Made by a program: the position numbers and the translations under genes. A DNA stretch of 64,000 nucleotides from Hydractinia symbiolongicarpus (taxonomy: Eukaryota), in NCBI RefSeq assembly GCF_029227915.1, contig NC_079879.1:27507095-27571094 (forward strand). The letters run 5' to 3'. Every line of letters begins with the position of its first letter. Position 1 is the first letter of the stretch. This document shows, one piece after another, positions 28,609 through 63,644 of the stretch. The notes beneath the pieces are model-generated. The model made no database searches and had not been told where the DNA came from. It was given only the letters and a program-made list of their open reading frames with translations.

Positions 28609-29646
28609 TTAGCAGTGTATAAAGGGAAAATATTTGCTTCTCAAGCAGTTTTCATTCAAAGCAAAACTGGCTTTATAAAGATTCCTAAGCTTTTGGAAAC
28701 TCTCTCTCCAAGATAAATTTTTGTCCAGGAGAACTCCAAGAAATTTCATCGAATATTCTCTTCTTATGTTTACGCGATCAATAACTAATCCAGGTAACCT
28801 AAGAGGTATTTCATCTTTTTTACTAAGCTTGTGAAAAAAGGTATATCTAGTTTTTGAAGTGTTGAGGGATAATTTATTCGCTTTAAACCAATCAGCCAAT
28901 TTAGTCAATTCGGTGTTAGTAGTATCAAAAAGGACGTTTATATCTTTATGAGTAAAGAATAAATTTGTATTATCAGTAAATGAAATTGCATTCAAGACAC
29001 TAGATGCTCTAAATATATCATTGATATAGATAAGGAACAACAATAGTAATATAATTGTCCCTTGAGGTACTCCACATGCTATTAACCTGTAGTTAGTATT
29101 TCCTCCGTCATAAAAAATAAATTTTGTTCTTTCGAAGAGGTAGTTCTTAAACCATGCGAGGCATGTATTTCTTATGCCATAATATTTGAGTTTTTCTAAC
29201 AGAATCACATGGTCGACTGTATCTAATGCCTTGCTGATATTAATAAAGACCCCAATTGTAAATTTATTCTCATCAAAGGCTTAAAATATCTTTTGACTTA
29301 ACTGAATGATTGCGTGACCAGTTAAATGACATCCTTAAAAGCCAAATTGCTTATTATACAAAATATTTTTATTTTTTAGGAAGGAATAAATTCTGTTGTT
29401 CACGATTCTTTCCAAAATCTTCGAGAAACAGGGGAGTATTGAAATTGGTCTGTAGTTAGATACTCTATAAACATCTCCTGCTTTAAAGACTGGGACAACT
29501 CTAGCTATTTTTAACTTTTTAGGAACAATGCCTGTAATTAGAGATGAATTAAATATATGCAGTAGTGGAGATTTTAGTTCATTGAAACAGTTCTTTAAGA
29601 CATTGCTGCTGATTTGATCAAAACCAGGACTTTTGTTGATTTGCAA
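28609..29646 (-). CDS. LINE reverse transcriptase (two ORF pieces, frameshifted)
   Basis: RT motifs 'PGFDQI', 'FKAGD', 'RPISIL', 'GVPQGTIL..LFLIYINDI' and a degenerate YxDD box 'FTDNT'. Confidence 0.75.
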
Positions 29647-29898
29647 CGAATGAAATGCTGCCTCTAGTTCCTCCTCACTTAGCTCTTTTTCTCCATTTCA
29701 TTATCATGACATGACAAATACGATTTGAAGGATTTTGTACTGTGATCTATTTTTGGATGCCAAGATTGGTCCTATTTTAGTAAAAAAAATTTTTGAATTC
29801 CTCAGCTATCAAAGATGATTTCACAATTTGATTTTCGTTGTTTACAAGTTTTGAAGGAAAGAAATTACTTCTAATATTTAGTTTACCAATTACTCCAT

Positions 29899-29961
29899 TA
29901 ATTAGCTAATAAATGCGAGAAAAACATGGCATATGTTTTTCTCGCATTTATTAGCTAATTT
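29899..29961. repeat. Near-perfect 63-bp palindrome with 26-28-bp arms and a ~7-nt centre
   Basis: 'ttagctaataaatgcgagaaaaacat ggcatat gtttttctcgcatttattagctaa'. Confidence 0.9.
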
Positions 29962-30360
29962 GTTCATTAAAATTAAAATTCTTAGCACGCTTTTTTATTA
30001 ATTCAAAAAGGTTACAATAATCTTTACACAGTGTTTCATACCTGTAAGTTTTCTTTATATAATTTTTGTTTTCTTTGGGAAGATATTTGGAGGCCCTTAG
30101 TTATCCAGAGTTTTAAGAATGTTTTGGTCTTAATAAATTTGATTTCTTCTGGAAATGCTGCATCATAATTTTCCAAAAAAATTTGTTAGGGAAGCTATCA
30201 TATGCACCATTTTACCTTAGACAATAAATTCCTAAATAATGTTATTGCAGTTTAATTTTTTTTTGCTTTTTTATTTTACATGGTTTGACTGTTTCTCAAA
30301 GTTTGTACTGGACGTGATAAAGATTGGAAAATGATCAGAGATGTCTGCTTTAATAATACC

Positions 30361-30783
30361 CTAAAAGAGTTTTTTGTCGCAAAATGAATTTGTTATGATG
30401 TGATGAACTTTCGTAGCGTTTTGATTAGTTGTCCCGGTTGGTTTATTTATGAAAGGAATATACTGACTCCAAGATATGGAGTTAAAGAAATACTGGATGC
30501 TTTTGTTTATTTCATAATCAAGTGTGTTGAGGTTAAGATCCCCCACCAGGTATGTTGCTTTTCTAGTGTTTTTATTGTTCATTTTGATAAGCTCAAATAA
30601 CGTTTTAAAATTATCAATTATTCCTGCAGATGGCCTGTTTATTACGCTTACAATGATGTTTTTTGCTGTTTTGTTCAGTACTTCTATACTTAATGACTCA
30701 CAATCGTTATTACTCACATATAGCTCTGTTCTTTTTTTATACAATAGAGAGTTATGAATAAACAAACACACGCCACCACCCAC
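30361..30783 (-). CDS. LINE apurinic/apyrimidinic-like endonuclease domain (fragment)
   Basis: 'GGGVCLFIHNSLLY..LSIEVLNKTAKNIIVSVINRPSAG..YLVGDLNLN' has an exonuclease-endonuclease-phosphatase fold signature. Confidence 0.6.
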   Translation of the reverse strand: MGGGVCLFIHNSLLYKKRTELYVSNNDCESLSIEVLNKTAKNIIVSVINRPSAGIIDNFKTLFELIKMNNKNTRKATYLVGDLNLNTLDYEINKSIQYFFNSISWSQYIPFINKPTGTTNQNATKVHHIITNSFCDKKLF

Positions 30784-38910: not shown

Positions 38911-40244
38911 ACAATAAATTTCTGGAAGAGAATAAATCATGAAAATGATAAATGCAACAGTTGGCAAAATATGCTGTTTTCTCAAAATATAATTTATTAC
39001 AAATATAGCTAAACCAATCATCAATACAAATATTATCCATGTCAAATATTCTACTTTCTTGAAAATTAAAGATTACACAAAATAAATAAGGGTTAGTACC
39101 TAGTAGTCTGAGATAACACTATCAAACACTGCAGACGTTTTTTAAATCTTACAAAAACGTGCTTTTAAAACATTTTAATAGTTTAGAAGGTAGCTCTTAT
39201 ATTTTTGTGCTGACTCATTATCACCGTTCAATGAAGCCGACATGTAATTTTCTGTATGAACCTACGCACGAAGTTATTTGATGGATATCTGAATCATCAT
39301 CTGTCAGCGGATTGGTTTCCACACTTTCACAATCCGCAACATTTAAGATAGACAGACGCAGTGTGGAAACAAAAGTTGTCTTTCTGTACAAGTCTGTCTA
39401 TATAATTAACTTTCAAGGAACAAAAAAAATATGATAAACATGCAAAGTAGAGAGAATGGAAACGTCCAAATCTGTCGAATTTTTGTACAAATGAACAAAA
39501 AGTGTTACCAAGCTAATTAAGGAAAATGTGCTCACTTTTTTTTCAGAAAACTTCAATGTTTATATTCTTTATTACGATTTTCATATTTTTATAGCCAAAC
39601 AACTAGAGCAGGAAAATAATAGACGATAATAGATTTTAAAAACTTCTAATAGCCATACATAAAAAATAATAAAAATAATATAAAATAATTTTGTTAAGGG
39701 CGAAAACTTTGTTCTTCAAACAGTTCTTTCTGTAAAGATGACAAAACAGAGCCAGCGAGTTGCACAATAATTTCAATATATGAAAACCAGGCGTACAGGT
39801 ATAATTAAAAAGCATTAGCAAGCTAGGCTAAGACGCACGCTATCACAGGAATTTTCTATCCTTAATTTTAGTTTTCTTGTCACGTTTGTTATTTAGATTA
39901 ACTAATTGAATAGACACTTGATTAGGGAGGCAATCAGTTACAGAGATATTTCAATTTATTTCCAAGCCATGTGGTCTTAAACTTTATTAATTCTAATATC
40001 CACGTTGATCATTGCGATGTTTTAATAACTGCTTCGCAAATATGTACATCCCTTTTGAAACAGAGTAAACGTATTAATATAGCAGAAATAAAGAAGAACA
40101 TCTCAGTAAATTTAAAAAAATATGTGACTCATCTCTTTAATAATAGCCGTATTTTGTCCGACCCCCCGCTGAGTTAGAAAATCGTGCTACTGAAACACGA
40201 ATATCAAATGCGATATATTTTTATCCACTCTGTTGCCTCAGTTA

Positions 40245-40432
40245 AATTAAAAGGACCGGCGAACCCATGGATTTTTCCACGGGCTAACGACTAGTCTATA
40301 TTATGATACCCGTATGCGTCTGTCTGTCACGCAAAATGGTAGCCGCAGTAGCGAGACACAGGAAATGCGCTTAATAAAGAACGGGCGAAGCTGCGGATTT
40401 ATCCACGGGTTACCGACTAGTATACTATAATT
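40245..40432 (+). repeat. Two direct copies, ~140 bp apart, of the terminal 'ggatttttccacgggc..cgactagt' motif also found at the foldback element at 53.5-55 kb
   Basis: 40254 'ggcgaacccatggatttttccacgggctaacgactagtc' and 40393 'ggcgaagctgcggatttatccacgggttaccgactagta'. Confidence 0.6.
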
Positions 40433-42383: not shown

Positions 42384-44146
42384 ATGGAAAAGAATCAACC
42401 CACTCCCGACTACAACAGAATGTACAACGATGACGAGTTTGGATATCCTGTGACAAATCAACCCTACATCTATCCTGGACGTTCTGTATGTTAATAAACT
42501 TAAAGGCGGGTTTCCACTGAAACGAATGTAGTCAAATCGATTGAATCGATCCATGGATTTTTAATTAAAATTGATTTTCACTTAAATTCCACCATATCTT
42601 AATCGATGACGATTCATTCAAATTTATTTTAAAACAAATAACACAAATTTGATATGAAATAATGATATTTAGCATGTACAAAATATTTTCGTGCTATTCT
42701 TTAAAAATTACTCATTCTTTTGCTTTGTGAGACTTTGAAACTTTTCTAAGAAGTGTCCGAAGACATTGAAATCCGCAATCTCATTCTACAAATAATATCT
42801 TAAATTCCTCAACACTCATCGACGAAAAATCACTCATCAGTGACGGTTGCTTTTGTCAAATAGTGTATTGATGTTGATGCATCAAATACACAATTACATT
42901 TTTGTTTAATATGTTTTAGCTGTCTTGCTTTTTCCCGCTTCTCAAAAAAGTTCATTTCTTCGTTGATTTGTTTAAACCACGTGGGTAAAAATCAATCAAG
43001 TAGAAAGCAATCCTACTTTTAAATTCTATTGAATTCGACCGCTGGGTCGACGTCGATCGACGAAGATGATGCAATGTTCTATTTTTAGTAGCCACCATTA
43101 TCAAACAAAAGCAACTTTTAGTTCGTCCATATTTTGTTTATTTGTGACGCCATGATGCGGTCGACGACAATCGATTTGACCATATTCGTTTAAGTGGAAA
43201 CCCTCCGTTACACTACTTTTTGTGTATTTTTTTTAAAGATTTGCTTTACGGACTTTACTAAAAAAATATTCTTTCCATTTTGCTAAATAGCATAGCTATG
43301 ATACTGACTAGCTTTGTACATCGAATCAATGAGCACCATCAAATGTAATACCTACCAGTATCAAAGATAAAAATCAAATATCGCGTACGCATTCAATAAA
43401 CAATGTTATTATTTGTTGCATCTCATTTTCTTAAGGTAAAAACTGTTACCATTTCTTTTTTCTCCTTATGCAAAACAAAAACTATTTTAAGTTTGATTCT
43501 ATGTGGGAAAATCTATTAGAATTTATGGAGATGACTGACTTAAACAGCACTCAGCCTCGTTTAAAAATCCCAAGACCAAATGTGTAACGAATTTTGATGT
43601 AATTGCTTCATCTGAATAAAATTTGCAAATCGGAACACTGCGCCACATCATTTAAAAAAGCAACTTAAGAAATCAAATGTAGCACGGAAAATTTCCTCTG
43701 CGATCCTTATTCAATGTATTTACATTTAGCAACCCATGTCTACAATGGTACCAGTTCAACAACCTTATGCAGAAACTGTGAATATACCAAACTATTTTGC
43801 TATATCTTTGCTATCTTGTATATTTTGTTGTTGGCCGGTTGGTATTGCTGCTATACTTAAATCCCAGGAGGTGAGTATCAAGGATTATTTTTTGTATAGG
43901 TTGTTGGAGCGGATGTTATTTCATTTATACAGCACATCTTCATTTTCTTTTAAAACATGTCGTAGTTGTTACTATCGTATGTTTTAGGTTAATAACGCAC
44001 TTGCTGTCAACGATATTCCACGTGCTCGAAAAGCATCAGACGCTGCTAAGAAATATGCCATCATTGCTTTTGTGCTTGGTTTGATTCTTATACCTGTCGT
44101 CGTTGTGACAAGAATAATGATAGCAAGCCAACAAGAACAACGATAG
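42384..44146 (+). CDS. CD225/dispanin-family (IFITM/PRRT-like) small membrane protein, paralog A. Three exons: 42384-42485, 43730-43870 and 43988-44146.
   Basis: Exon 1 'MEKNQPTPDYNRMYNDDEFGYPVTNQPYIYPGRS' ends at donor gtatgt. Exon 2 follows acceptor tttag: 'QPMSTMVPVQQPYAETVNIPNYFAISLLSCIFCCWPVGIAAILKSQE', then donor gtgagt. Exon 3 follows acceptor ttttag: 'VNNALAVNDIPRARKASDAAKKYAIIAFVLGLILIPVVVVTRIMIASQQEQR*'. 'CCWPxGxxAxxxSxxV..GD/ND..A..AS..AK' followed by a TM helix is the CD225 signature. Confidence 0.8.
42496..43210. mobile_element. TIR-bounded MITE (~715 bp) lying in intron 1 of CD225 paralog A
   Basis: 42496 'ggcgggtttccactgaaacgaatgtagtcaaatcgattg' is the reverse complement of 43163-43210 'caatcgatttgaccatattcgtttaagtggaaaccctccg', about 39 bp with ~4 mismatches. 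Confidence 0.7.
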
Positions 44147-46089
44147 AAGTGTCAACAACACAATACGACGACAAGTATCTTAACATACTAGCATATAGTT
44201 ACAAACTAATTGTCGCCCCATACTTGAACATTCGTTTATCTGTTTTTATTGATTATTATATTTATTTAATTGAGTATCTTGGGATTTGAAACAAATAATG
44301 AAAAATATGAAGTATGGTTGATTTTGGAGACTTTACATGAAATTCTTTCGCACATTCCAAATATTACCAAATAAGAAAGTGAGTTACACTGCCATGGCAC
44401 ACATTTTATTTAGACTTTATCTGACTAATTTCAATTAACGAAAATTGGCCTTAGTATTTTCTGTCCATGTATTTTTGTTAAAATTGATATGTAACCCAAA
44501 ACACGTCATGCCAAGTTTTAAGTCATTTTTTTAAGTTCTACTGAAGATATACGAATTGTATTTTATTCAAAACGTATGGTTTCAATCGAAATTTCTGTTT
44601 TAAACAGCTGACCTTTTCTTTTCTTTGTTTTAACATTGTACAAGATTTGCTTTGCTTAGGTCATGTGGGTTGCAAAATATTAAAAGCGGCTTGACATTCG
44701 TCCTGAATATAAAGCCTAAAACTTCCTGGCATGTACAAGGTTAAAAAACAATCCAAAGACTGTCGATACACTGGTATAGCTAAAACAGTCACAGAACAAG
44801 CTCCTACATTAATCTTGAATAAAAAACCGAAAACTGATTGCGGATATCACCTCACAGTCAAGCAATTTTGGGGCTGTAAAAAGTCCAGAATTTGTTTAAA
44901 CTACACCTTCTGCATACCCGGTCTATCATTACTTAGTCATAGTTGAAACAGTTGGGAATGCTCCAATACAGGTGTAAAAAACTAGCTACATTTAAATGTT
45001 TAAATTTAAAACAGAATAAAAACGTCTATGCTGTTGGTACTTTAACCTTAGGTAGGTAACAATAACATTATCTACCTATAACATTATCCGTAAGCAACAA
45101 TAACACAGAATAAAATATAAAGTTGTAGCTACCTAGCAGCAAGATTCTTGCATAAGTATGGTAGGTATGATAGGTTGCTATCTTAGCTAGTACATAACTT
45201 TAATAAACTTGTTCCGCATTTATGTGTAGCTTAAAGCAAATAAAAGTGCTTGAAAAGGTATAATTCTTACATGGCGCAATTTTTTCCGCTTACGAGATTT
45301 AGTTCTGGATACTTTAAATGCTGCATTTACCTTTTTTTGTCGATTTGCACTCCAACTTATATTTTCTTCGTATAGTTGATTTAAATTATTTCTTAACTAT
45401 TGAGAAAATTGACTGAATAATGACATACACATGCGTATACACAATTAAGTTAGCGCGGTCAGTAGTCAGCAATAAAAAAAGGTATGATGATATAAAACAT
45501 GACAAACAGGTACAACGTAATAGAATTCATCGCACCAATATAAAAAATAAAATGTAAGGAAGAACACATTTTTGATCTATTTTTCCGTATCGTTTATTTA
45601 AAAAAAACTCTTATCATTCCAACAGGGTCTTTTAATGGGGTTTGTAATTAATAATTATGGTGAAACTACCGTCTTTTTAACAGTGTCATACCTAGGGTAT
45701 GAATGACTCGAAGGCTGACCCATTAGCTCAAAAAATGGAAGTGAAATGCTTCTAGTTGCTCCTAGTTAGAAACTGTGCAAAAGAAATTGAAATCAACATC
45801 TAGTCAATTATCGTCTCATTAAACAGTTTATTACTGATTTTTCCTGAAGCTATGTTTGCTCAAGACTCCCATACATTAGACGAATAGGTCAACCGCAAAA
45901 GCAAGACCCCTCTCTTCTTAACAGAAAAATTTCGAATAGTGACGAATTGTCAGAAAATGAAGAAAATCGTTACCTTGGTGGGACTTTGTAGATATTAACA
46001 AAGCCTTTAATCTGTTAATCACCTTAACGGCTGTTTAAAACCGCCGATTCTATATATCGTTTTTATTCAGCTTTTCAAGCTCTACACAA

Positions 46090-46392
46090 TATTAGGAATA
46101 AATAACTTGCAAACAGATAAAAAATAACTGACGTCATCTCCCGCGTTGGTAAGTAGGGTCAAAGAGACTAGTTGATGACGTAGTATTTAAACTCCAGTAT
46201 CTCCTCAGCTGTTTGTCAAAAGTACCCGATTTTAGTACACATTTTCTTTATCAGCATTTTAAGTTTTATACAATAGACGCGTGACGGCTGAACAAATTAC
46301 ACTGATAATAATTTTGTGTATCGATGGGTCATTGCTGAGATCATCACAATTCTGCCTTAGTGGATTTTCCACTTATCGACTATCTTATATAA
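46090..46392. repeat. Partial copy of the CRE-palindrome foldback family (terminal module plus TGACGT-containing segment)
   Basis: 46321-46390 'gatgggtcattgctgagatcatcacaattctgccttagtggattttccacttatcgactatc' aligns to 54975-55042 'cctgacgtcatcaaaatttttatcctgccttagtggatttttccacgggccttatcgactagt'. 46128 'ctgacgtcatc' and 46173 'gatgacgtag' are also present. Confidence 0.5.
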
Positions 46393-47981
46393 ATTTTCCT
46401 GTCAGTAGCGTCAGCGAAGTGGATGTGTATGTCTTATGGGCTTGCCGATAAATTAGTTATTTGTTGCCGTTAATACATTGGTTTGACGTCAAGAACATAA
46501 TTCTGATTAGTGAAGCCATTGCATTTCACTTTTAAGTTTAAGACTACATAATTTGGAAGCGGTTGGAAATAGCTGTTTCCCATTGTCGCGTGTGTACCCA
46601 GGAGCAAGCTACCTGAGAGCAAAACTGATCAAATTCTCTGAAACTGAACCCTAAGACCGTTTTTGAGTTGATGGGTTGCTGTCGTCCTTAAAGAATATAT
46701 ACATTCTACTTAGCCCTTTTTAAGGGAGCAACTAGATAAAGTTTCGCTTTGTTCGAAGTAAAATGAAATTTCTAATTAAATTAAATTCCTCTATAAAAAG
46801 ACAACAAACGGGCAGCCTTAATTTACATCAATCATATAATAACTGCACATGTGCAGTTGCCAGTGAAGTTTCATTTTTGTCAAAAGAACACAAAGTGAAA
46901 TTTAGATCGAAGAAGTTTCACTTTGGGCTATAAAGTATATATCTTAAAGTTTATGAACGGTGACAAACGAGTTTTGACTTCACTTGGGACGAAAGGAAAC
47001 TCTTACGTAAACGCCGCCCAAGGTTTGTTGTTTGCTAAAAAAAAGTTTAACATGATTTGATATAATTTCTTTGAAGCAATCTTTTTACCTTTTCTCGTAT
47101 ACTATTCACAATTCGACGACCAAAACCAAACAGAAACGTCTGCATTATTATACTCGTTTGTAAAGCAACGAGTGTGATAACAGCGAACATGTGTGAAATA
47201 AACCACAAATTTTGACAATACTTATACCTTTAAAAGCCCTTCCTTTGTATCTACTATGCTTCCTTTTTTTGTCAGCGTTAAGTAATGCCGTACGTCCGTA
47301 CTTATTTATTTCATACTCATACTAATTTATGTTGTACTAATTTATTTCTATTAATTGTATTTTTTGAAAGGCAAAATAATGCTGTGACCTCATATGCAAA
47401 AAATCTAGCAAGACTCCATTCCAGATCGCATCTTTAGCAACTGTGTTTTTTAATTTTTAGAGAATGGAAGAAAAATCTGGATTTCTAACCGGTTACACCT
47501 TACGCTCGACATCAACAACAACCCATTAGAATAGAACAAGTATGAATGCAGGATAATCTAGATCTTTCTTAAAGAAAATAAAACAGAAAGTGAAAACCAA
47601 AAACAAAAATAGAACAATTCTTTGTTTCAAAATTACTGTTTTTGCCGGAATACAATAACAGAAATATAATTTATTAGCATATATTTACGAACATGTTTCG
47701 ATATTAAGAGTACATCACATATACACGTGGAAACTTAAAATGTTAATTGTACATCTAAGTACTTTTTAAAGACAAATATCTACCCTTTTCACACTTGCGA
47801 TGTCAATACCATTACATTTAAAAAAAATATGGGTAACAGCTTACATAAATGAATCGTCCATGATAAGGTGAACTAAGTAAATATATAAATTACTGAGCTT
47901 AAACTTCTACATTAGGACTGCTTATTCGCCCTATGTTTATGCCTTTCAGTGCACTTGTAGAAATAGCATTATGTTCATTAG

Positions 47982-48336
47982 GTGTCTGTACCAAACTACG
48001 CTGTCATGTCTTGGCTAGCTTGTTTGTTTTGTTGTTGGCCAATTGGTATTGCAGCTATAATTAAATCCAACGAGGTGAGCACCATGCCAATCCCATAATA
48101 ATATTACTCGAATCACTTTTTTAATGTGGTTGCATTTACTTTGTTATCTCAAATGTAATTCGTGCTTGTTTTAGGTGGATAATGCACTTGTTGTCAAGGA
48201 TATTCCACGCGCTCAACGAGCATCAAAAGCTGCTAAGAAATACGCCATTGTTGCCGTTATACTTAGCCTGATTTTCATACCTATTGCCATTGTACTAATT
48301 CGTCAAAGTGTGTTGAATGTGATGAATGCAAATTGA
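47982..48336 (+). CDS. CD225/dispanin-family paralog B. Exons 2 and 3 are at 47982-48074 and 48175-48336. Exon 1 is uncertain or possibly disrupted.
   Basis: Exon 2 follows acceptor cattag: 'VSVPNYAVMSWLACLFCCWPIGIAAIIKSNE', then donor gtgagc. Exon 3 follows acceptor ttttag: 'VDNALVVKDIPRAQRASKAAKKYAIVAVILSLIFIPIAIVLIRQSVLNVMNAN*'. Exon structure and phases match paralogs A and C. Confidence 0.7.
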
Positions 48337-51485: not shown

Positions 51486-51926
51486 TTGAGGCAAGTGATG
51501 TTTTGTTTGCTTTTCAATGTTTCACGATGGAAGCACATTATGCTGGATCAAGCAAAACACGGCCAAAAAAACTTATCTGGAGGGTATGGTAGATACTGTT
51601 GCATAACGCAATGTACCAGTGCGTTTTATAATTCAGAAAGAAAACCAGCTGGCATATCTTTTTTGAAGATCCCTCAAAAAAATCCGGAAAGAAAAAGGTG
51701 GATTAACGGGATACGCAATTTTAAAAAACAGGGAGCAAGCGATGGATTTGATTTTGCTAAAAAAATATATGTTTGGGAATTTCATTTCCAGGCAGAGGAT
51801 ATTCGTGTTTCATTGGGTATTGGTAGAAAAACATTGAAGCCGAGAGAAATACCTTCAATTTTTGAGTTCAAAAAGAAGAAAGAAAAGCGTAAGGAAATGT
51901 CCAAAGAAGCGATCATGGATAATTAA
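51486..51926 (+). CDS. THAP-like zinc-finger domain ORF, with the third Cys apparently replaced
   Basis: 'YCCITQCTSAFYN..ISFLKIPQKNPERKRWINGI..IYVWEFHFQAEDI..REIPSIFEF' follows the THAP layout CxxC..W..P..(C)xxH..AVPTIF. 'WEFHF' sits where 'CxxHF' is expected. Confidence 0.5.
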   Translation: MRQVMFCLLFNVSRWKHIMLDQAKHGQKNLSGGYGRYCCITQCTSAFYNSERKPAGISFLKIPQKNPERKRWINGIRNFKKQGASDGFDFAKKIYVWEFHFQAEDIRVSLGIGRKTLKPREIPSIFEFKKKKEKRKEMSKEAIMDN

Positions 51927-52194
51927 TGACAAATGTCTTTTGAATATACACCTGACAGTGAGGGAGAAATCTCGGATGAGAGTGAAACCAGTTTAATAGA
52001 AAATTAATAACTAAGGGAAAAAATAAAGAAATTGGAAGAGGAAAAAAACTTTATTGCAAAGTGAACATACTTATTGCAATCTGCAAGTCTTTATAGGCAT
52101 GATAGTAAATCGAAAAATAAAAAACATTTCAAAAGCACAACTGGCTTAGATCCAGATATTTTTTGATCCTGGTGAAGACTGTAAAAGTTTCAAA

Positions 52195-52964
52195 ATGTAT
52201 GATACAAATAAAGATTTATCTGAGGAAGTTTTCACAACATCAGAAGACTCATATATGTTGAAGACAGGACCGAAACCAAAAGTTTCACTAATAGATCAAT
52301 TATTTCTTTACATAACTTGGCTACGAAATGGCTTTACATTACAACACACTGCGTGGCTTTTTGATGTTTCCATACCAATTTGACCCAAAAGAAGACAAGT
52401 TGACAAACATATGTCGAAAGTTTCAAAAGAACCTATCCTACCAGAAGGTGTATAATTGATTGCACTGAGCTGTTTTATCAAAGACTATCCTCACTTATAA
52501 CACAAAGTTCACTTTATTCACATTATAAGAATCATGTGAGATACAAAGGATTAGTTGGCATATCCCCTCCTGGATCCATAACATTTGTCGGTCAGTTGTA
52601 TGATGGCTCTATCCCAGACAAGGAAATTGTAGTTAAATCAAGATTATTAGAAAAACGACTGTGGCAGGAAAATGATAGTGTCATGGCTGACAGAGGCTTC
52701 ACAATTCAAAACGAATTAAATTCACTCAATGTCAAATTAAATGTTCCTTGTTTCCTAGCTGGTAGAGAACAACTAACAGTTGCAGAGGTGAAGGAAAGTC
52801 AAACGATTGCTTCAGTACGTATACATGTTGAAAGAGCAATACAAAGAATAAAAAAGTTTCGAGTATTGAGAAACGAAATACCGCTTACTTTACATAGTTC
52901 AGTGAACCAGATTTGGACTGTTTATTGCCTTCTATGTAATTTTGTGCCATTTTTAATACAGTAA
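52195..52964 (+). CDS. Harbinger/PIF-type DDE_Tnp_4 transposase, second and distinct copy from the 27-kb one; interrupted across frames
   Basis: N-terminal HTH-like 'LIDQLFLYITWLRNGFTLQHTAWLFDVS'. C-terminal 'ADRGFTIQNEL..LNVPCFLAGREQLTVAEVKESQTIASVRIHVERAIQRIKKFRVLRNEIPLTL..VNQIWTVYCLLCNF' is the characteristic Harbinger block. Confidence 0.7.
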
Positions 52965-53486
52965 GATATATCACAGATAGTATAAACGTATAAGGACATC
53001 TTCAAAAAATGAGTGGCATGAATTTGCCTAAAAATGCTATATTTTCTACAATTTCCAAAATGATTAAACAAAAATTGATAGGTTTATCACAACAAACAAA
53101 AAATGGGCATTTTTGTAATGTCCAATAGATTGCCACCCATTTTTGAACATGCTCATAGAGTACCTTATTTCAATTATACCAAAGTTGTATATTTTCAAGT
53201 TACATGTATATATACATATATATTATATAATATGTTTACGTCACTTTAGCATGCGAGGAATGATAGTTTTGGGTTACTCTTCACCAGCTTTAATAACAAA
53301 AATCGTTGGAAGCATAAAGTCCTTGTAAAACATATTCAGTATCTTCACTAATTCCAAAAAAAGTCACAAAATGTCGCCCCACATAATCCCATTGCCAATT
53401 TGAGTGAAGCACCCATCAGGATGATCTTTCCTCAGAAACAACTTTCAATTTCGTTGTTGGATGTAAAATGACTCATCTTTTATTAG

Positions 53487-55045
53487 ATCACTAGTCGATA
53501 AGGCCCGTGGAGAAATCCACTTAGTCAGAAGGACAATAAAGAATAGGTTGTTTTAGTTTTCGTGCTGACGTCAGCAGTGCAGATACAAAACAAGTTTAGC
53601 AAAGTTTAGTGTATTCGTAGCCTGTAATGTGTAGAGGTTAAAACGCTGATGAGAAAAATGTATAGGATTGTGGGTTTTCGACGAACGTATAAGGAAATAT
53701 AGGGGTTTAAAAATCTTGCTGACGTCAGCAAAGAGCCGCAAAAAAATTTCAAGAATTTTATATATCTAATGTCTTTATCGTATAGATCTTGAAACACTGA
53801 TCAAGAATATGTATAGGATCATGTACTTTTGACAAACGGTTGCAGAGATATTAGGGATTGAAGGTTTTTTGATGACGTCATTAACCCGTCTATTCCGAAA
53901 CGGATTTGAGGACCCAGGTTTGGGAAAATTACCCAAATTGATCCTAGGTGGTCCCTAGTTACCCACGCGGTGAATAATCATTGACGTCACCACCTCATTT
54001 CCAAGTTATTTGGTCTCAAAGTCTTAATTGCACTGTAATGGCTTCATTAATTTAATATTTGATTTTGACGGGTCATTGCTGACGTCAGCAAAATTTTTAA
54101 ACCCTTATATTTCATTAACAGCTCATCAAAACCACACGATCATATACATTTTCTTGATCAGCAGTGTAAGGTTTACACAATGGAGGAAACATGAAAACAA
54201 GTTTCTCAATTTATTTATTTATTTTGTATTTGCACTGCTGACGTCAGCAAAAAATGTAAAACAGCCTATTTGTCCATCTTTCTTTTGCCTGGGTGGATTT
54301 TTCCACGGGCCTTATCGACTAGTCTCTTATAATAATACGGAGTGTATGTGATGGTCATAGTGGATATCGGCTTTTTCCTTTAAAGTCGCTGAAATTTCCT
54401 TTGAAGTTGCCGAAAAAAGTATGTCTCAAATGTTAAATTTTATGACGTTACGGCGCGACGTCAATAACACTACTTTAACGTCAATATCCTATATTAAATT
54501 AATGAAGCCGTTACAGTGCACTTAAAACTTTGAGGCCAAATAACTTGGAAACGAGCTGGTGACGTCAATGATTCTTCACCGGGTGGGTAGCTAGGGACCA
54601 CCAGGACCAATTTGGATAACTTTTCCAAACCTTGGTTCCCAAATCCGTTTTGGAGTGGACGGGTTGATGACGTCATCAAAAAACCTTCAAACCCTAATAT
54701 CTCTGCAACCGTTTGTCACAAGTACTTGATCCTATACATTTTCTTGATCAGCGTTTCAAGATCTATACAATGAAGGCTGCAGGAATAAAATCTCTCAGAA
54801 AAATTGTTGTCTTCGCGGGTCATTCCTGACGTCAGCAAACTTTTTAAACCCTCCTATCTCAATAACCGTCATTAAAAGCACATGCTCATATACATTTTCC
54901 TGATCAGCGCTTTAAGCTCTCCACAATAGAGGCAATGTAAAAACAAAATTCTAAATTTTTCTGGGTGGATGAGTTCCTGACGTCATCAAAATTTTTATCC
55001 TGCCTTAGTGGATTTTTCCACGGGCCTTATCGACTAGTTTTAAAT
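53487..55045. mobile_element. Foldback-like palindromic element (~1.56 kb) built from ~120-170-bp subrepeats, each carrying a perfect TGACGTCA palindrome
   Basis: Terminal motif 53487 'cactagtcgataaggcccgtggagaaatccac' is the reverse complement of 55012-55045 'gtggatttttccacgggccttatcgactagt'. An internal copy of the right terminus sits at 54296-54331. 53750-54060 is the reverse complement of 54480-54790 and 53600-53760 is the reverse complement of ~54800-54960. There are about 11 TGACGTCA sites (for example 53563, 53723, 53873, 54075, 54240, 54668, 54825, 54980) plus tgacgtta/cgacgtca variants at 54440-54460. Confidence 0.75.
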
Positions 55046-55209
55046 ATTGTCTTTCCCTTAAAAGCTTATACAAAAATATGAAAAAGCCATATAGTTTCGA
55101 AAACATCAAATTTAAATCTAGAAAAAATCAGTCATTTCGGTTGGATACCGTCATCTCCATCAAAAATTTACACAAAATGCAAAAATCAACCAGTTAAGAA
55201 AACAAAAAT

Positions 55210-55510
55210 TTTCCTTTTCAGTTCCGTACTGCCCTTTTTTGGATTTTGCGTGGCAGGAAAAAAGATGCTATGATTTGGTGAATAAAGGTCTTTTGCTATG
55301 GATTTCTTCTAATGGGGACATCGTTTGGGTTATAAACTATTATCGAGTGTAGGTTGATGCCTTCTGATTTATTTGAATTCATAAAAAGTCATAAGAATGC
55401 CTTTGTTTGAAGAAATGAACTGATAATTACTTTGCTTCACCTAGCACCCCAATCTTTTTCCTGCCACGCAAATGCCAAAACCAAAAGGGCTTACCACTGA
55501 AAATGTAAAC
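55210..55510. repeat. Hairpin / MITE-like inverted repeat with ~55-bp arms
   Basis: 55215 'ttttcagttccgtactgcccttttttggattttgcgtggcaggaaaaaagatg' is complementary to 55452-55505 'atctttttcctgccacgcaaatgccaaaaccaaaagggcttaccactgaaaat'. Confidence 0.7.
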
Positions 55511-55631: not shown

Positions 55632-56199
55632 CATAATTCGTGCTCATAAAAGAAGAGAAATTTGAAAACTATAGTAGTTAGCTATGGATAATTAAAAAAG
55701 AGGAATAACAACAGAAGTCATAGGTTAGAGCTAGCCATAATGGGATGGGGGAGCTGGAGTTGGAGGCTAGCATTAGCTAGCTAACAGTATATAAGACTCC
55801 CAGTTAAATACACTTAAACTTGGAATACTTCGCTAAAACTAAAGCTAGCTATTTGTGCTTAGTCAAACACATATAAAGAGAGGCAATAGTGATGTAAAAT
55901 TAATAACATTACAGTTCAACAAACCAAAGTTTTGCTTTTTTTGTCAGCCAGCAGCTTTATGTAGCATTTTGAATTTTAGGACAATACATTAGTTACGCGC
56001 CAGCGCACATGAATTATGCAACAAAACGTAAACAAATATGGCTACATACACGGTAAAATAAAAAAACTGTGGCCTTTCCTGGGAAATGCGAGTCTGCTTG
56101 CTCCACTGACATAAAAACCAAACGTCTAAAAATATCAAAGTTCTTACTTTTTGTAATTTCAAATCCACTTTAAACTCTAGCCTTTGTTTTCTAATTCTA

Positions 56200-56470
56200 A
56201 CTTTACATTACATCTAGCTCCACTTCTCACTTCACTTTTCTACTTCTTCACTTGGTCTCTTTTCTTTTTAAACATATAGCTATGCTTTTTAAAACCACTT
56301 TTTCCCTTTTTTTCAAGGTAAATGGATCGTTCTTCTGTGCTTTCTTTGGTGACCTTTATTTTCTACGTCTTAATTTAATTTACTTCTAGCTCCACCTTCA
56401 CTTCCAACTTCACTTTTCTACTTCTTCACTTGGACTTTTTTTTTTTTAAATATGCTTTTTTGAACCACTT
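56200..56470. repeat. Tandem duplication, about 2 copies of a ~180-bp unit
   Basis: 'tctagctccacttctcacttcacttttctacttcttcacttgg..tttaaa..atgctttttaaaaccactt' at 56212-56300 is repeated at 56385-56470. Confidence 0.75.
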
Positions 56471-58565: not shown

Positions 58566-59810
58566 ATGCAATTCCTATAAGTAATTGGTCACGTAGAAAC
58601 ACAGCGTAACATTTTAAAGCAAAAGTTTTACGTATTAATTAAATCAAATCTTATATATCAGAAAACACATCTCAATTCATCCGTAATTACAGGGAATTTC
58701 TTGTCTACTGAAAAGAAATTGCACATAAAAAACACCAATTATAGCATTTTAACATTCACATGCACGCCATTAAAATGCTTGATCTAGTTGATTACTTCTT
58801 AAGCGTTAGTATAAAAGGATATTGATCACTGCTAGGAACCTTGAACAAGTTATTGAAGAAAAGAAATTGCAAAGTTAGGTATGTTAGCTTAATGCAATTT
58901 CAATTCTATTTCCTTTACAACTATATAAAAACATGCACATGCGCAGTAGCACAAGCTTCGTCTGAATTTCAATTATGCAAACAGTTCAAAGTTTTCTAAG
59001 AAAGAACAAAATGTCTTTTTTAGCTTTCTGTTGTTTGTTTTTTTCCCAGACAAATTTGATCTAAAAATAAGATTTTTTTGAAGCAGCATATTTATCTTAT
59101 ATCAAATAGTGGTATAACGCGAATTTGTCATAGTACTATTGTGTGTATCTATTCCTGCGTGTTAACATGAAGTTATGAGACAAATTTGCATCAGGGGTTT
59201 ACTATGTTAAAAGTTTCTATTATAATTAGCATTCACGATTACAAAACAGTCGGTTTTTATATTTAGACAACGGCTATCATTACAAAAACTAGTCGGTAGC
59301 ACGTGGACAAATATAATAGTTCGCCCGTCCTTCTGATATCACATTTCGAGTTTCCGTTATACGACAAATTTCTTGCGAGCAGACAAATAGAATACGGCTA
59401 TTAATAATTTTTAAATTTTCCTTTTCTTTCTACTTTGTTTCAGTACTGTGCGTTTATTTTTTTAGCGGCTTAATATTTTGTCATTTCTAATTGATGGATT
59501 GATTATATATCCCCGGTAATGTTAATACAGTTGACTTTAAATTCATTCGAAAATTGTATTTGACGTGACAACAACCAGCTTGTATTATTATTTCAAATGA
59601 TCTAAGGAATGGAGTCAGAAGTCACAATGAACAACATGCATACGATTGAAAACATCATCACTTACATGCATAACTTCTTATGATTGGGGTATGGTTTATA
59701 ATGAATGTTTTTTAAAAGCCAAAAAAAACGTACTTATGTCCGAATAATAACAACAAACAGAGTCTATCCGGTTATGCATTAACAAGTGATAAAACTCGAA
59801 TTTTCAGGAA

Positions 59811-62800
59811 ATGGAGGAAAAAGCTGAAAGTCAACCTAGTTACGCAGGCGCAACTTATTCTCAACAACATCAACAGGAACAACCATTGCTACCGGTGCAA
59901 ACACAGGTATGTGAACTAAATTTATTGTTATTACCAAAAACCTTCTCATGTCTTTTTCGTATGACTTTAGAATTTCATACGAGTGTGATCATTATTCCTT
60001 ACATTAACGCTTCTACGGAATTGAATGTTATCAAAATATAAGAGGAAAAGCAAACCAAAATGTAGAATAGAAAAATTCATTGTCTTAGGAAAACTAAGAT
60101 TAAAGATTAAGAATGCTTATGCGCTTAATTTTTATTTAGCAACCTTTCACCACAGTTGTAACAGTACAACAACCTTTTGTGCAACCGGTTCATGTACCAA
60201 ACTACGCTGTCTTATCTTGGCTCGCTTGTTTCTTTTGTTGTTGGCCAATTGGCATTGTAGCTGTGGTTAAATCCTTCCAGGTGAGCATTATGCCAATCCT
60301 ATAAATATTACTTACTTTATTGCATAAAAATTTCGCGCCATGAAAATTTCGCGGTCATTTTAATTTCGCGGTTTTTTTGCCCAAAGTTGCATTTCGCGGC
60401 ATTTTAATTTCGCGGTTAAAGCCAAAATACAAATTTCGTGTTATTTTAATTTCGCAGTCCAAGAGAAAAAGTGAATTTTGCGACATTTTAATTTCGCGGT
60501 TCGAGAAAAATTTTTTGAAAGAAAGAAGTTCGAGAAAAGTTTTTTTGAAAAAATGCCTATTTTTACCATCGCAGACATAAATAAGATATTGTTCAAAGGA
60601 AGATTTGCGATTATATTTTCTCAACAAATAATCATTCTTCCGTAAGATTGGCGAATACGCCTGGAAGTTTCGCTGCGACTCAGAAATCTCGTCATCTTCG
60701 TCATCACTTACCTTGTCTGATTCACAGGGGCCATAACCATGGAGCTGCTGATTTTTCTCTGACATTTATAGAAAGGGCGTAATGTTGTTTTTGCTTTCGG
60801 GTTGAGCCGTCGACATTAAAAGGTGGATATGTTGCAGGGGGTCCAATTCTGGTAAGGTTTCATAGCTTTTGTCGTTTGCCTCTCTTATCCCAGATGCTTT
60901 CCATCCATTAAAAATCACTTTCTTTCCCTTACTTGTGCTCATATGGTTGTAAAATTCCATCAGCCATTTAGCGTGCAGTGGTTTGAGTGTTGTCAGTTGG
61001 AGTTTGACATCAATTGCCTCTAGTTATTTGCTGTCGTCAAGCTGCTGGAATATTTGATCGGTATACCATTCATTGAACATTTTTTTACAATATTTTTTGG
61101 CGTATCCATTCACTGTAAGATCTAGGGACTGGAAAATCGATGTCATGTTCACTGGAACAAAGTCGAACAGGATATTGTTTTCTTTAAGTAGATCTAACAC
61201 CGGCTGAATGACTTGACCTTTGAAGACATCGAATATAGCCGGAGCTTCCTGGCTTGGGAAATCCAATCGTTCTCGTTCGCTCTCGATGTATGGGATCAAA
61301 ATCTCCTTAATAAATTTCATTGATTCCAGTTCGCTGCTGTAATGTTTTTGTTGACACTGAGCGAAGAATTTGGTGGAAATTGGAATCTTTGAGTGGTTTT
61401 CCATTTGTAGATAAATTGCATTCCAAAAAATTGACCATCCAGCGTGGTCGTTATAGCACGTTTATCATCACTTCCTTTGATGACAAACTGCCTGCTTTTC
61501 CGTTCAGCTAAAGTGGTGCTGGTAACTGGAACAAATTTGGAAGAGGTTTGGTCGAAATTTAGGATGAGCGTTTCCGGCATTGATTTATCGGTTACTTTCT
61601 TTACGATTGAATGGTTGAAAAGCACTTGCGTCTCTTTTTGCCACCAGAGGGAATGACAAGGTTTGCAGTGGTGGCCTTTCTTCGACTGAACTTCATTCTC
61701 ATAAATAAGCTTTGTGCCCAGGAGCGTTCATTGATCGAAATCGGCAATGCTAATCTAGGATATCGTTTCATGAATGCTTTTGCAGCAGAGACGGCTACTG
61801 ATCGTGTGATAACAGCCCCGTGATTCGACGCAGCCCTGATGTAGCTTTGGGCCATCTCATCTAATCTTCCAAGAAGAAGAGGGCATCCTTGTCTTTGTCT
61901 TCTAGAGTAAACATTTTGCCTTTAGACATTGAAAGCTCTTGCCCATACCTATTCTGAAATCCCCTGGCCGTGCTTTCGTTTATGTTTGGAAACTTTTGCT
62001 TGAACGCTCTCACGCATTCAGAGGAATCATTCTCACTCGCATATTTCCCAATGTTAAATCTATCCTGCGCTGTGTATGCGACGCACTTTCCTCGAGAAGA
62101 GCTCTCTTCAGACACCGATGTTTCAGCAGCAACAAAGTCAATGGTTCCCAAATCCGATTGGCTATCTTGGCTGCTCCCGCCTAAGATATAAAGGACAAAT
62201 TTGATAAATATTGCAGGAAAGAGAAAACATATTAAGTGCATACCGTGATAATATTTTATGAATTTGCATAAATAGGAAAACACTTGATGAGACCAAAATT
62301 TAATACTTTTGTTTATACACTTACTTTGAGATTGATCCATGTCTTACTTCTTTGAGTGCACGATAACAAAGAAAGACATAAAACAGTAATTCGAATGTTA
62401 TGAAACGTGACACTGTCGGCGCTTGCTTTGTGGCGGCGAGACAGTCTTTCACTTTGTAATTGACATGATTCGAAATTCGAATGTTTTGAAAAAAATAAGA
62501 ATGTGCACACATTTGAAAAAGAGCTTTATACAACACGCACACAGCTATGAGTCAGCTCCATAATATTCCTTGTCATCCGAGGTTTTCATTATTATCGTCA
62601 TTATTGGACACCTCATCTTGGGGAAGAATTGGTTTGTCAGTATGATGGCTTCAACCCATTTGATGTTTTCGCCACCAAAACGTGTTCCAAAGAAAATGGT
62701 CGAACTTACAGACATTTGTTCTCACGGGCAACAAAATATTTGATTGACAGGGGTGCTGAAGTTTTCGTAGAAGTATCATCAAACCATTATTGCCGTTCTC

Positions 62801-63644
62801 CACATGTTCAGGGTGGTCTTGAATTTCCTTGTAAATTATCGGTTAAATTGGCCGTCGCAAGAATTAAAAAAAAATGCTGATCGAGAGATGTAAACAAATA
62901 TTACAACAACTCTATGAAGAATCTGCAGAAGAAGTTATCATGGGTTTACTTTTTGTCGACGATTGTTTGGAACTCGATGATGTGGAAAATGAAACAAATA
63001 TTTGTGAAACGCGCCAAAACAGAAAAAGAAAACTTGATAAAGTGAACAAAAAAAAAACAACGTCAAAAAGTCAAATCAAGAATCTTATCAGCCCAGTTGT
63101 AGCAGAAGTAAAGATGTAAGAACATTTTTAAGCCTTGTCAAAGGAGAAGAATGTGTAGGAACAGAGTAAAAAATCTAATGTTATTGTGATTGACTAAAGA
63201 AGATTGTAATTTTCCTTCCATATTGTATTAAATACCGTACATGGTAGCTTATATGGTAAAAAAATAATAATACCGTTTCGATTCTTAGTCGTATTTTTTT
63301 GCAAAAAAGCCCGGATTCTCGGGCCTTTTAATTTCGCGGTTTCAAAAACTGGATTTTTTTGCGCATTTTAATTTCGCGTTTTTTTTGGTTCCTACCGCGA
63401 AACAGCGAAATTTTAATGCCGCGAAATTTTCATGCAATAAAGTAATTTATTTTTACTTAATTAATTTTTTAAAATCGTTTAATGCTTCCTTTAGGTGAAT
63501 AATGCTCTTGCAGTAAATGATATTCCACGTGCCCAGAGAGCATCCGAAGCAGCTAAGCAATATGCCATTTCTGCTGTGATATTTGGCATCGCTTGTATAG
63601 TTGGTAGCATTGTGCTACAGTTGTTCGTTTTGGGACCTAAATAG
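59811..63644 (+). CDS. CD225/dispanin-family paralog C. Exons are 59811-59906, 60140-60280 and 63495-63644. Intron 2 is expanded to ~3.2 kb by a transposon.
   Basis: Exon 1 'MEEKAESQPSYAGATYSQQHQQEQPLLPVQTQ' ends at donor gtatgt. Exon 2 follows acceptor tttatttag: 'QPFTTVVTVQQPFVQPVHVPNYAVLSWLACFFCCWPIGIVAVVKSFQ', then donor gtgagc. Exon 3 follows acceptor cctttag: 'VNNALAVNDIPRAQRASEAAKQYAISAVIFGIACIVGSIVLQLFVLGPK*'. Confidence 0.8.
60306..63452 (-). mobile_element. pogo/Tigger-like (Tc1/mariner superfamily) DNA transposon, ~3.1 kb, with TIRs and subterminal tandem repeats, inserted in intron 2 of CD225 paralog C
   Basis: TIR: 60312 'ttactttattgcat' is exactly the reverse complement of 63433-63446, with extended similarity to about 60360 and 63400. 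Subterminal 'attttaatttcgcgg' repeats lie at 60340-60500 (~5 copies) and 63310-63425 (~4 copies). Internal minus-strand ORFs carry a CENP-B/Tc5-type HTH and a DDE domain. Confidence 0.7.
60355..62340 (-). CDS. pogo-like transposase (HTH_psq/CENP-B N-terminus, HTH_Tc5, DDE_1), split over several frames by frameshifts or introns
   Basis: N-terminal 'KCVAYTAQDRFNIGKYASENDSSECVRAFKQKFPNINESTARGFQNRY' (61861-62340). HTH_Tc5-like 'GAVITRSVAVSAAKAFMKRYPRLALPISINERSWAQSLFMRMKF' (61601-61855). DDE start 'LILNFDQTSSKFVPV..RKSRQFVIKGSDDKRAITTTL' (61317-61625). DDE C-terminal 'DVFKGQ..LLKENNILFDFVPVNMTSIFQSLDLTVNGYAKKYCKKMF', matching pogo 'IxLLFLPPNTTSxLQPLDQGVIxxxKxxYR' (61024-61404). Acidic C-terminal tail (60355-60765). 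Confidence 0.65.

Follow-up and report, generated by a model that had tools for sequence, protein, structure and literature searches.

A palindromic cluster of probable Helitron-type copies carrying CRE-type sites in Hydractinia symbiolongicarpus

Is a large palindrome with matching arms one mobile element, or several? The question is raised by a 64-kb stretch of Hydractinia symbiolongicarpus DNA (contig NC_079879.1; hereafter the window, to which all positions refer). In it, an imperfect palindrome spans 53491-55037 and carries many copies of the 8-bp palindrome TGACGTCA, correctly recognized at the outset as the core of the cAMP response element (CRE). The initial annotation took the region for a foldback-like element and found no textbook family to match it. 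We interpreted it to be, most probably, a cluster of three copies (A, B and C) of a short, non-coding, non-autonomous rolling-circle family of the Helitron type, and not one foldback element. That it is part of a multi-copy mobile-element family, as initially annotated, was borne out.

Composition of the palindrome

Global alignment of the two arms gave an identity of 84.4%, so that the large palindrome described earlier is real. Between 53000 and 55500, the repeat finder produced inverted pairs of 207 nt (53739-53945/54603-54809, 84%) and 161 nt (53910-54070/54479-54639, 83%), and a terminal inverted pair of 48 nt (I8, 53490-53537/54991-55038, 85%). The extra internal copy of the terminal motif was also found, at 54282-54323 (pairs D4 and I9; the latter 42 nt, 88%). 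The description of the left arm as the reverse complement of the right arm stood for the overall alignment, but not for the outermost left-arm repeat (S1), which paired with the internal copy B.

The arms had been said to consist of subrepeats. A profile made from five of them recovered five full monomers of ~155 bp (E<=1e-40), plus two at 45977-46092 and 46171-46283. Tandem Repeats Finder (TRF) did not report the ~155-bp repeats, because they are too few and too diverged (monomer-to-monomer identity was only 59-82%), whereas nhmmer recovered them. The composite contained no meaningful open reading frame (ORF) and no coding capacity. No target-site duplication (TSD) of 2-10 bp was present at 53490/55038 when the ends were permitted to shift by 0-2. 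The sole Rfam match in 53000-55500 was a sub-threshold one, to a miRNA family, and lay outside the element.

Comparison with copy C, the complete unit, resolved the palindrome into its parts (Table 1). Unit positions 136-715 aligned to 54085-53491 in copy A (nhmmer, E=1e-97), of which the CTAG terminus occupied 53494-53491 and the flanking T was the complement of position 53490. Copy B corresponded to unit positions 490-715 (nhmmer, E=6e-30) and was linked to copy A by the inverted pairs I3, I6 and I9. In copy C the repeats were S4 (~108 bp), S3 and S2 (~155 bp each) and a partial S1. The independent copy D2, at 46 kb, had the 5' region joined to S4 and S3 as in C, and this is therefore the normal order of the family. 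The orientation of the monomers relative to the ends was the same in all five copies A, B, C, D1 and D2.

A and B adjoin head-to-head, each with its 5' side truncated. The apparent terminal inverted repeats (TIRs) of the palindrome are therefore the outward-pointing 3' termini of A and either B or C. The 5' part that copy A lacks was found on neither the right nor the left flank, and for this reason an insertion of the joined B and C into A was rejected.

Copies A and B had a common S1 subtype (inverted pair I6, 87%), and the alignment placed copy C with D1 of the 46-kb locus in the other. At least two subfamilies are therefore involved. The 5' region of C also contained three ACGTCA half-sites, at 54443-54485.

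Table 1. Positions of the putative Helitron-type copies, their junctions and 3' hairpins, and the TGACGTCA sites of the composite
Feature	Position	Strand	Remarks
Copy A, 5'-truncated, non-autonomous Helitron-type	53491..54075	-	minus-strand order S4-S3-S2-S1-3' terminus; no 5' region
Copy B, 5'-truncated	54068..54322	+	monomer S2, partial S1, 3' terminus; S1 variant as in copy A
Copy C, full-length 715-bp unit	54323..55037	+	5'-TCTCTTATAATAATACGG, 156-bp 5' region, S4, S3, S2, partial S1, hairpin, CTAG-3'
Head-to-head A/B junction of truncated 5' sides	54068..54075	.	~4 nt shared (GACG); limits of homology in alignment
Head-to-tail join CTAG/TC, B to C	54319..54324	+	precise
3' hairpin of C, GCCttaGTGGAttttTCCACgGGC	55002..55025	+	ends 12 nt before CTAG-3' end; DNA fold -5.7 kcal/mol, z=-2.8
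3' hairpin of B	54287..54310	+	ends 12 nt before copy end; DNA fold -5.7 kcal/mol, z=-2.8
3' hairpin of A, GTGGAtttcTCCAC	53507..53520	-	-4.7 kcal/mol, z=-1.8
D1, older decayed copy	45961..46382	+	monomers and 3' terminus reading CGACTA (G lost); one intact TGACGTCA at 46129, others decayed
D2, older copy, head-to-tail with D1	46383..46726	+	5' end TCTTATATAAAT, 5' region, S4, S3, then truncated
Mini-element m1, 163 bp	40132..40294	+	5' end TCTCTTTAATAATAGCCGT, 3' hairpin and CGACTAG; no TGACGTCA repeats; host A 40131
Mini-element m2, 126 bp	40295..40420	+	joined CTAG/TC to m1; T at 40421
Mini-element m3	59289..59416	-	directly followed by another 5'-end-like sequence TTTTTGTAATGATAGCCGT
TGCTGACGTCAGCA (A-S1)	53563..53576	.	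perfect 14-bp palindrome, = CRE-type Maf recognition element
TGCTGACGTCAGCA (A-S2)	53717..53730	.	palindrome extends to 16 bp
TGACGTCA (A-S3)	53873..53880	.	inside ATGACGTCAT
TGACGTCA (A-S4)	53982..53989	.	
TGCTGACGTCAGCA (B-S2)	54077..54090	.	palindrome extends to 16 bp; single-stranded DNA fold -4.8 kcal/mol
TGCTGACGTCAGCA (B-S1)	54236..54249	.	
TGACGTCA (C-S4)	54560..54567	.	
TTGATGACGTCATCAA (C-S3)	54664..54679	.	16-bp palindrome; flanks differ from GC-type sites by symmetric change
TCCTGACGTCAGCA (C-S2)	54824..54837	.	one mismatch from 14-mer
TGACGTCA (C-S1)	54978..54985	.	

Ends of the family and their interpretation

When the copies were aligned with their flanks, all seven 3' ends in the window read (C)GACTAG, one of them in degenerate form, and T followed in every case (7/7). 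CTAG was present at six of the seven; at 46382 the G was lost, leaving CTA. The 3'-end pattern matched exactly 6 times in the window, against 0.01 expected. Beyond the trailing T the independent 3' flanks of the seven aligned module copies were unrelated and AT-rich.

In the terminal module, a short hairpin (GTGGAttttTCCAC, lengthened by GCC/GGC) was separated by 11-12 nt from CTAG; single-stranded DNA folding placed the end of the m1 hairpin 11 nt before the 3' end. Outside the composite, modules lay at 40276-40295, 40402-40421, about 46360-46383 and, on the minus strand, 59288-59307. Those at 40 and 46 kb had been noticed before as solo copies and are present; the one at 59 kb had been missed. 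The 40-kb copies are not solo modules of the long element, but belong with the 59-kb copy to a family of mini-elements with the same ends and no TGACGTCA repeats.

The 5' end of the unit started with 5'-TC, in the sequence TCTCTTATAATAATA. TC began the units at 54323 (C), 40132 (m1), 40295 (m2) and 46383 (D2), and was degenerate at 59288 and 59416. This second conserved sequence also stood alone at 40132, after host A. In searchable form the end pair of the family is TCTCTTATAATAATA ... GGATTTTTCCACGGG(N)CGACTAG. In four of the seven 3' ends, the trailing T was at the same time the first base of TCTCTTATAATAATA, TCTATATTATGATA, TCTTATATAAAT or the degenerate TTTTTGTAATGATA. Head-to-tail CTAG/TC joins were found at three places (B/C, 40294/40295 and 46382/46383), together with a degenerate one on the minus strand (59289/59288), where TC reads TT. 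Host A preceded the sole independent 5' junction (40131), and one possible further 5' stub was seen at 53475.

The 22 nt outside the 3' end of copy A, 53469-53490 (TGACTCA/TCTTTTATTAGATCA), resembled the 5' junction of m1, 40125-40150 (TGACTCA/TCTCTTTAATAATAG). The local alignment score was 24, which 2 of 300 shuffles reached. This likeness may mean that a further Helitron left a 5' stub here, or that the target is a preferred one. TGACTCA is the core of the AP-1 site, or TPA response element (TRE).

The mini-elements m1, m2 and m3 were related to each other, and their interiors, free of TGACGTCA repeats, were unrelated to the 715-bp unit. The same 5' and 3' ends therefore bound two kinds of interior, the 715-bp unit with its TGACGTCA repeats and mini-elements of 126-163 bp, and the ends are accordingly the cis-acting parts. 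Such sharing of ends between unrelated interiors is what non-autonomous elements that depend on one enzyme usually show. Since the mini-elements lack TGACGTCA, this motif is not the end-recognition site, and the suggestion that it is the site of the family's own transposase found no support.

The canonical Helitron starts with 5'-TC, ends with CTRR-3' (mostly CTAG), has a hairpin 10-15 nt before the 3' end, inserts between A and T and has no TIR (PMC6591975). Helraiser, a reconstructed bat element, has a palindrome 11 nt from its end, A-TC and CTAG-T insertion joins, and circles with precise TC/CTAG junctions (PMC4778049). The present family resembled HelibatN and Helraiser-mobilised elements in its 5'-TC, its CTAG-3', a hairpin ~11-12 nt from the end, T after the 3' end, A before the one independent 5' end, and the lack of TSD and TIR (PMC4778049, PMC6591975), and its CTAG/TC joins are the junction seen in Helraiser circles. 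Every canonical sequence feature of non-autonomous Helitrons that was tested was present; the target site was only partly covered. A textbook family thus does fit, contrary to the initial annotation (PMC6591975, PMC4778049). The family differed from textbook Helitrons in a hairpin that was shorter and less G+C-rich than the usual 16-20 nt, in an interior made of a short array of ~155-bp repeats, and in that no autonomous partner was seen in the window.

For a TIR within the unit, the 5' 40 nt were compared with the reverse complement of the 3' 80 nt, and were no better than shuffles in C, m1 and m2. A complementary heptamer in the mini-elements that had been seen by eye, TAGCCGT/ACGGGCTA, was not above chance. 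The Helentron-derived HINEs, Cg_HINE/pearl and DINE-1, have a central satellite-like array of ~150-170 bp, a 3' palindrome and no TSD (PMC7492417). The present family shared with them a short satellite-like array of fixed orientation between end modules (here ~155 bp, in A, B, C, D1 and D2), the 3' palindrome and the lack of TSD. On the other hand, the 11-12-bp subterminal inverted repeats of HINEs were not found here, and a HINE-type arrangement was rejected since 5'/3' complementarity did not exceed chance. Nor was the 5' microsatellite of HINEs found, TRF giving only a 21-bp tandem duplication in the 5' region of C (TTTCCTTTAAAGTCGCCGAAA, 2 copies, 54374-54415). HINEs insert at TT or T-rich sites; the flanks here were T at the 3' side and A (40131) at the 5' side, the latter from one clean junction.

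Several observations weigh against the Helitron assignment. The hairpin was short, with a core stem of 5 bp and 4 additional pairs, and was not rich in G+C; its folding was significant against shuffles for B, C and D1, but no better than shuffles in m2 and m3. Only one clean host-A/5'-TC junction was present. No Rep/Hel domain occurred among the window ORFs of >=110 aa, and the window held no RepHel gene. The exact 3'-terminus pattern, GGATTTNTCCACGGGN{4,8}CGACTAGT, had no match in metagenome contigs, prokaryotic genomes or viral contigs, and the exact monomer-core pattern, CTGACGTCAGCAANNTTTTTAAACCC, had none in metagenome contigs or viral contigs. Mobility, copy number and the A/T target rest on few junctions, with eight full or partial copies (A, B, C, D1, D2, m1, m2 and m3) in one 64-kb window and no empty site. 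B and C, although joined, were of different S1 subtypes.

A first alternative is that the block between two inverted 3' ends (A+B, 53491-54322, or A to C) transposes as a unit, as a mobile palindrome of the Heltir or ATon kind. Its inverted 3' termini were 85-90% identical (pairs I8 and I9), and A and B had the same S1 subtype (pair I6, 87%). Precedents exist in the Heltirs of maize, whose TIRs resemble Helitron 3' termini, and in the ATons of Aedes aegypti, which have TIRs, flanking A...T and A/T insertion (PMC3422177). Here, unlike in Heltirs and ATons, the inverted ends belong to separate, unequally truncated copies and a complete unit. The inner arms broke off at unequal positions and met at a junction whose microhomology is typical of a rearrangement, and a complete asymmetric unit, C, with its own 5'-TC end lay inside the block; the 5' end is required for Helraiser transposition (PMC4778049). 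The palindromic unit was not repeated in the window. The sole other locus of the long family there, at 46 kb, was purely direct, a pair D1/D2 like B/C with no inverted partner, and the palindrome is therefore local and not the architecture of the family. We considered a mobile palindrome improbable.

The weakest alternative is a foldback-type or other DDE-transposase element with long subrepeat TIRs, in which TGACGTCA would be the transposase site. Like foldback (FB) elements and Galileo, the region has large inverted arms composed of subrepeats, and repeated short subterminal motifs are typical of foldback, CACTA, hAT and P-type elements. In FB and Galileo the two ends are equivalent and TSDs are present. 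This alternative was dismissed as very improbable, since there was no TSD, the arms were whole asymmetric units, the supposed TIR also occurred as direct tandem copies and beside an unrelated 5' end, mini-elements had the same ends without TGACGTCA, which is thus unneeded there, and the ends agreed with the Helitron definition point by point. The supposed equivalent ends are two Helitron-type 3' termini of separate, opposed copies of an asymmetric unit without TIR. Readings of CACTAGT as a CACTA or Transib end were rejected as well; its first C was not conserved at the other ends and there was no TSD.

If the Helitron reading is correct, a RepHel protein encoded elsewhere would nick at 5'-TC and unwind from 5' to 3', peeling off one strand, by analogy with known Helitron biology (PMC4778049). 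It would pause at the 3' hairpin and cleave after CTAG, and the single strand would be inserted between a host A and T without target duplication. The CTAG/TC joins could arise by two routes. They may be the junctions of a rolling-circle multimer or circle; or host A and the first T of a resident copy may re-create an A/T target, so that a new copy would land exactly upstream. Because B and C are of different subtypes, a single-circle multimer fails for the B/C join, and the re-created target fits better.

The head-to-head A/B junction would be explained most simply by a later deletion, or by a template or strand switch between inverted neighbours, at the 4-nt GACG. Long palindromes are unstable, and microhomology together with unequal truncation is the trace expected of such a repair.

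The TGACGTCA sites

The window held 12 occurrences of TGACGTCA, where 0.46 were expected from shuffles, none of which had as many. The G+C content of the window was ~34% and the observed/expected ratio of CpG was 0.84. Ten of the 12 sites fell in 53566-54985; the dense cluster of the initial annotation was thus confirmed, with a count of 10 in place of about 11. Within the composite they were spaced 98-159 bp apart, except for a single interval of 321 bp that spans the 5' region of C. The extended form TGCTGACGTCAGCA was found perfect at four sites and with one mismatch at a fifth, where 0.02 were expected. This is the sequence of the CRE-type Maf recognition element, c-MARE (PMC12162849).

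Conservation of TGACGTCA across the subrepeats had been named at the outset as a point of refutation. It exceeded background: the cores were perfect in 10/10 sites, while 19-22% of 8-nt windows were conserved between copies. The retention gave P about 0.0026 for the four A-C pairs and about 0.035 for each of A-B and B-C, comparisons which are not independent. In monomer types S2 and S3, indels flanked the core on both sides, with none inside it. In the older 46-kb copy most of the sites had decayed, one of them through C>T/G>A transitions. The constraint therefore acts on the lineage that propagates rather than on each copy once inserted. In our interpretation, the TGACGTCA sites are kept by selection on the element lineage.

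In D1 (45977-46092), the position of the palindrome read TTGTAGATATTAACAA; most of its differences from TTGCTGACGTCAGCAA were C>T and G>A changes. This suggests deamination-type decay of inserted copies.

A second block of the monomer, TATACATtTTcTtGATCAG, which contains a TGATCA palindrome, was also well conserved. It appeared as TATACATTTTCTTGATCAGC in each ~155-bp monomer (e.g. 54143-54163, 54736-54756 and 54889-54909), its own palindrome TGATCA reading CTGATCAG in C-S2, and was nearly as invariant as TGACGTCA.

Two mechanisms would fit the symmetry of the sites: dimeric basic leucine zipper (bZIP) binding, or hairpins in a single-stranded intermediate. Our preference, held tentatively, is that they are candidate sites for bZIP proteins of the Maf or CREB/ATF class that would help the element or its autonomous partner, and ready-made bZIP sites would be scattered by the element as a by-product. 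The seeding of bZIP-bound modules suggested in the initial annotation is a possibility. Two points stand against this preference. Other blocks of the monomer (TATACAT, ATCAG) were invariant too, and the palindromes would be equally suited as single-strand hairpins.

In the hairpin alternative, which concerns only the role of the motif, palindromes of 8-16 bp would have been kept without a protein partner, as hairpins for RepHel pausing or recognition or for second-strand priming. Helitron transposition does have a single-stranded intermediate and a hairpin signal (PMC4778049). Five of the ten sites extended to perfect palindromes of 14-16 bp, and the predicted site hairpin, at -4.8 kcal/mol, was comparable to the 3' terminal hairpin at -5.7. 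The flank types TTGC...GCAA and TTGA...TCAA differed by a symmetric pair of changes, but such symmetry would equally be expected if a symmetric bZIP dimer bound there. The C-S3 hairpin was no better than shuffles. Three sites (both S4 and C-S1) were palindromic for 8 bp only and would form very weak hairpins, and the invariant part was exactly the bZIP core, not any self-complementary sequence; for these two reasons the protein-site reading was slightly favoured. We regarded a pure hairpin role as somewhat unlikely.

Neutral legacy appeared rather doubtful too. The motif would then have been present in the founding monomer, for example in a captured host promoter fragment, and would be intact through youth or gene conversion, without function. 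This would account for the decay of sites in the older 46-kb copy and for other blocks being invariant too. It is harder to reconcile with ten perfect cores among monomers of only 59-82% identity, and with indels that fall on both sides of the core in S2 and S3 and never within it.

As for the candidate bZIP sites, there are parallels in other transposons. Helitrons of Caenorhabditis rich in heat shock elements (HSEs) carry and spread dense clusters of one transcription-factor motif (PMC6927752); their HSF-1 sites have demonstrated binding and regulatory effect, whereas the CRE/Maf-type sites here are candidates known from sequence. The long terminal repeats (LTRs) of Drosophila gypsy-family elements carry motifs for Traffic jam, a large Maf, as transposon-borne TGCTGAC or pseudo-palindromic MARE-like sites (PMC7618790). 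Unlike those LTRs, which need transcription, a non-autonomous Helitron has no obvious need of it. The literature searched contained nothing linking Helitrons to CRE or MARE sites.

Surroundings and significance

The window is rich in transposons. Half a kilobase to the left of the composite, at 51486-52964 (+), a THAP-domain ORF was followed by an ORF for a DDE_Tnp_4 transposase of the PIF/Harbinger type. PIF/Harbinger elements have TIRs and a 3-bp TSD. This Harbinger-like remnant (51.5-53.0 kb) was considered as the autonomous partner and rejected, since it shares no ends with the Helitron-type family. To the right of the composite, a 26-nt inverted repeat (55237-55262/55455-55480, 92% complementary) bounded ~245 bp resembling a miniature inverted-repeat transposable element. 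The MIR8007 Rfam match covered this stretch (24.5 bits, against a gathering score of 195).

Farther away were a DUF3504 (Crypton-like) ORF pair at 20692-21497 (-), a reverse-transcriptase ORF of a long interspersed nuclear element (LINE) at 28609-30783 (-), and exon-like ORFs at 2391-10555 (-) with TRPM SLOG (LSDAT_euk) and TRPM2-like domains, which mark a TRPM-channel gene whose best database relative was 59% identical. Another dispersed repeat family, unrelated to the Helitron-type one, was found at 43703-44106, 47962-48293, 60113-60304 and 63487-63613 (matches of 127-176 nt, 69-81% identity). At 56190-56453, a CT-rich unit of 86 nt was present in two direct copies 178 bp apart and 77% identical.

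Each of these features has a precedent in Helitrons: internal tandem repeats, inverted 3' ends (Heltirs) and densely packed transcription-factor sites. The chief value lies in correct annotation, as an apparently new foldback transposon would be a composite formed locally from ordinary rolling-circle elements. A palindrome with Helitron 3' ends at its borders does not belong among TIR elements.

A broader conjecture, which we put forward as unlikely, is that the family built its internal repeats around perfect CRE-type Maf/CREB sites, in arrays of up to four or more in each 715-bp unit, as a means of recruiting a bZIP factor of the host, such as a large Maf expressed in the gonad; the Traffic jam motifs of Drosophila LTRs are the precedent. 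Such recruitment would provide open chromatin or expression where transposition is heritable, and insertions, above all inverted or tandem clusters, would as a by-product drop multi-site bZIP enhancers near host genes. If true, the family would be the bZIP counterpart of the HSE-carrying Caenorhabditis Helitrons. If the sites are bound, the family would join the Helitrons of nematodes, with their heat shock elements, in spreading clusters of a single transcription-factor site, and would also be convenient for studying why rolling-circle elements without coding capacity retain internal repeats at all.

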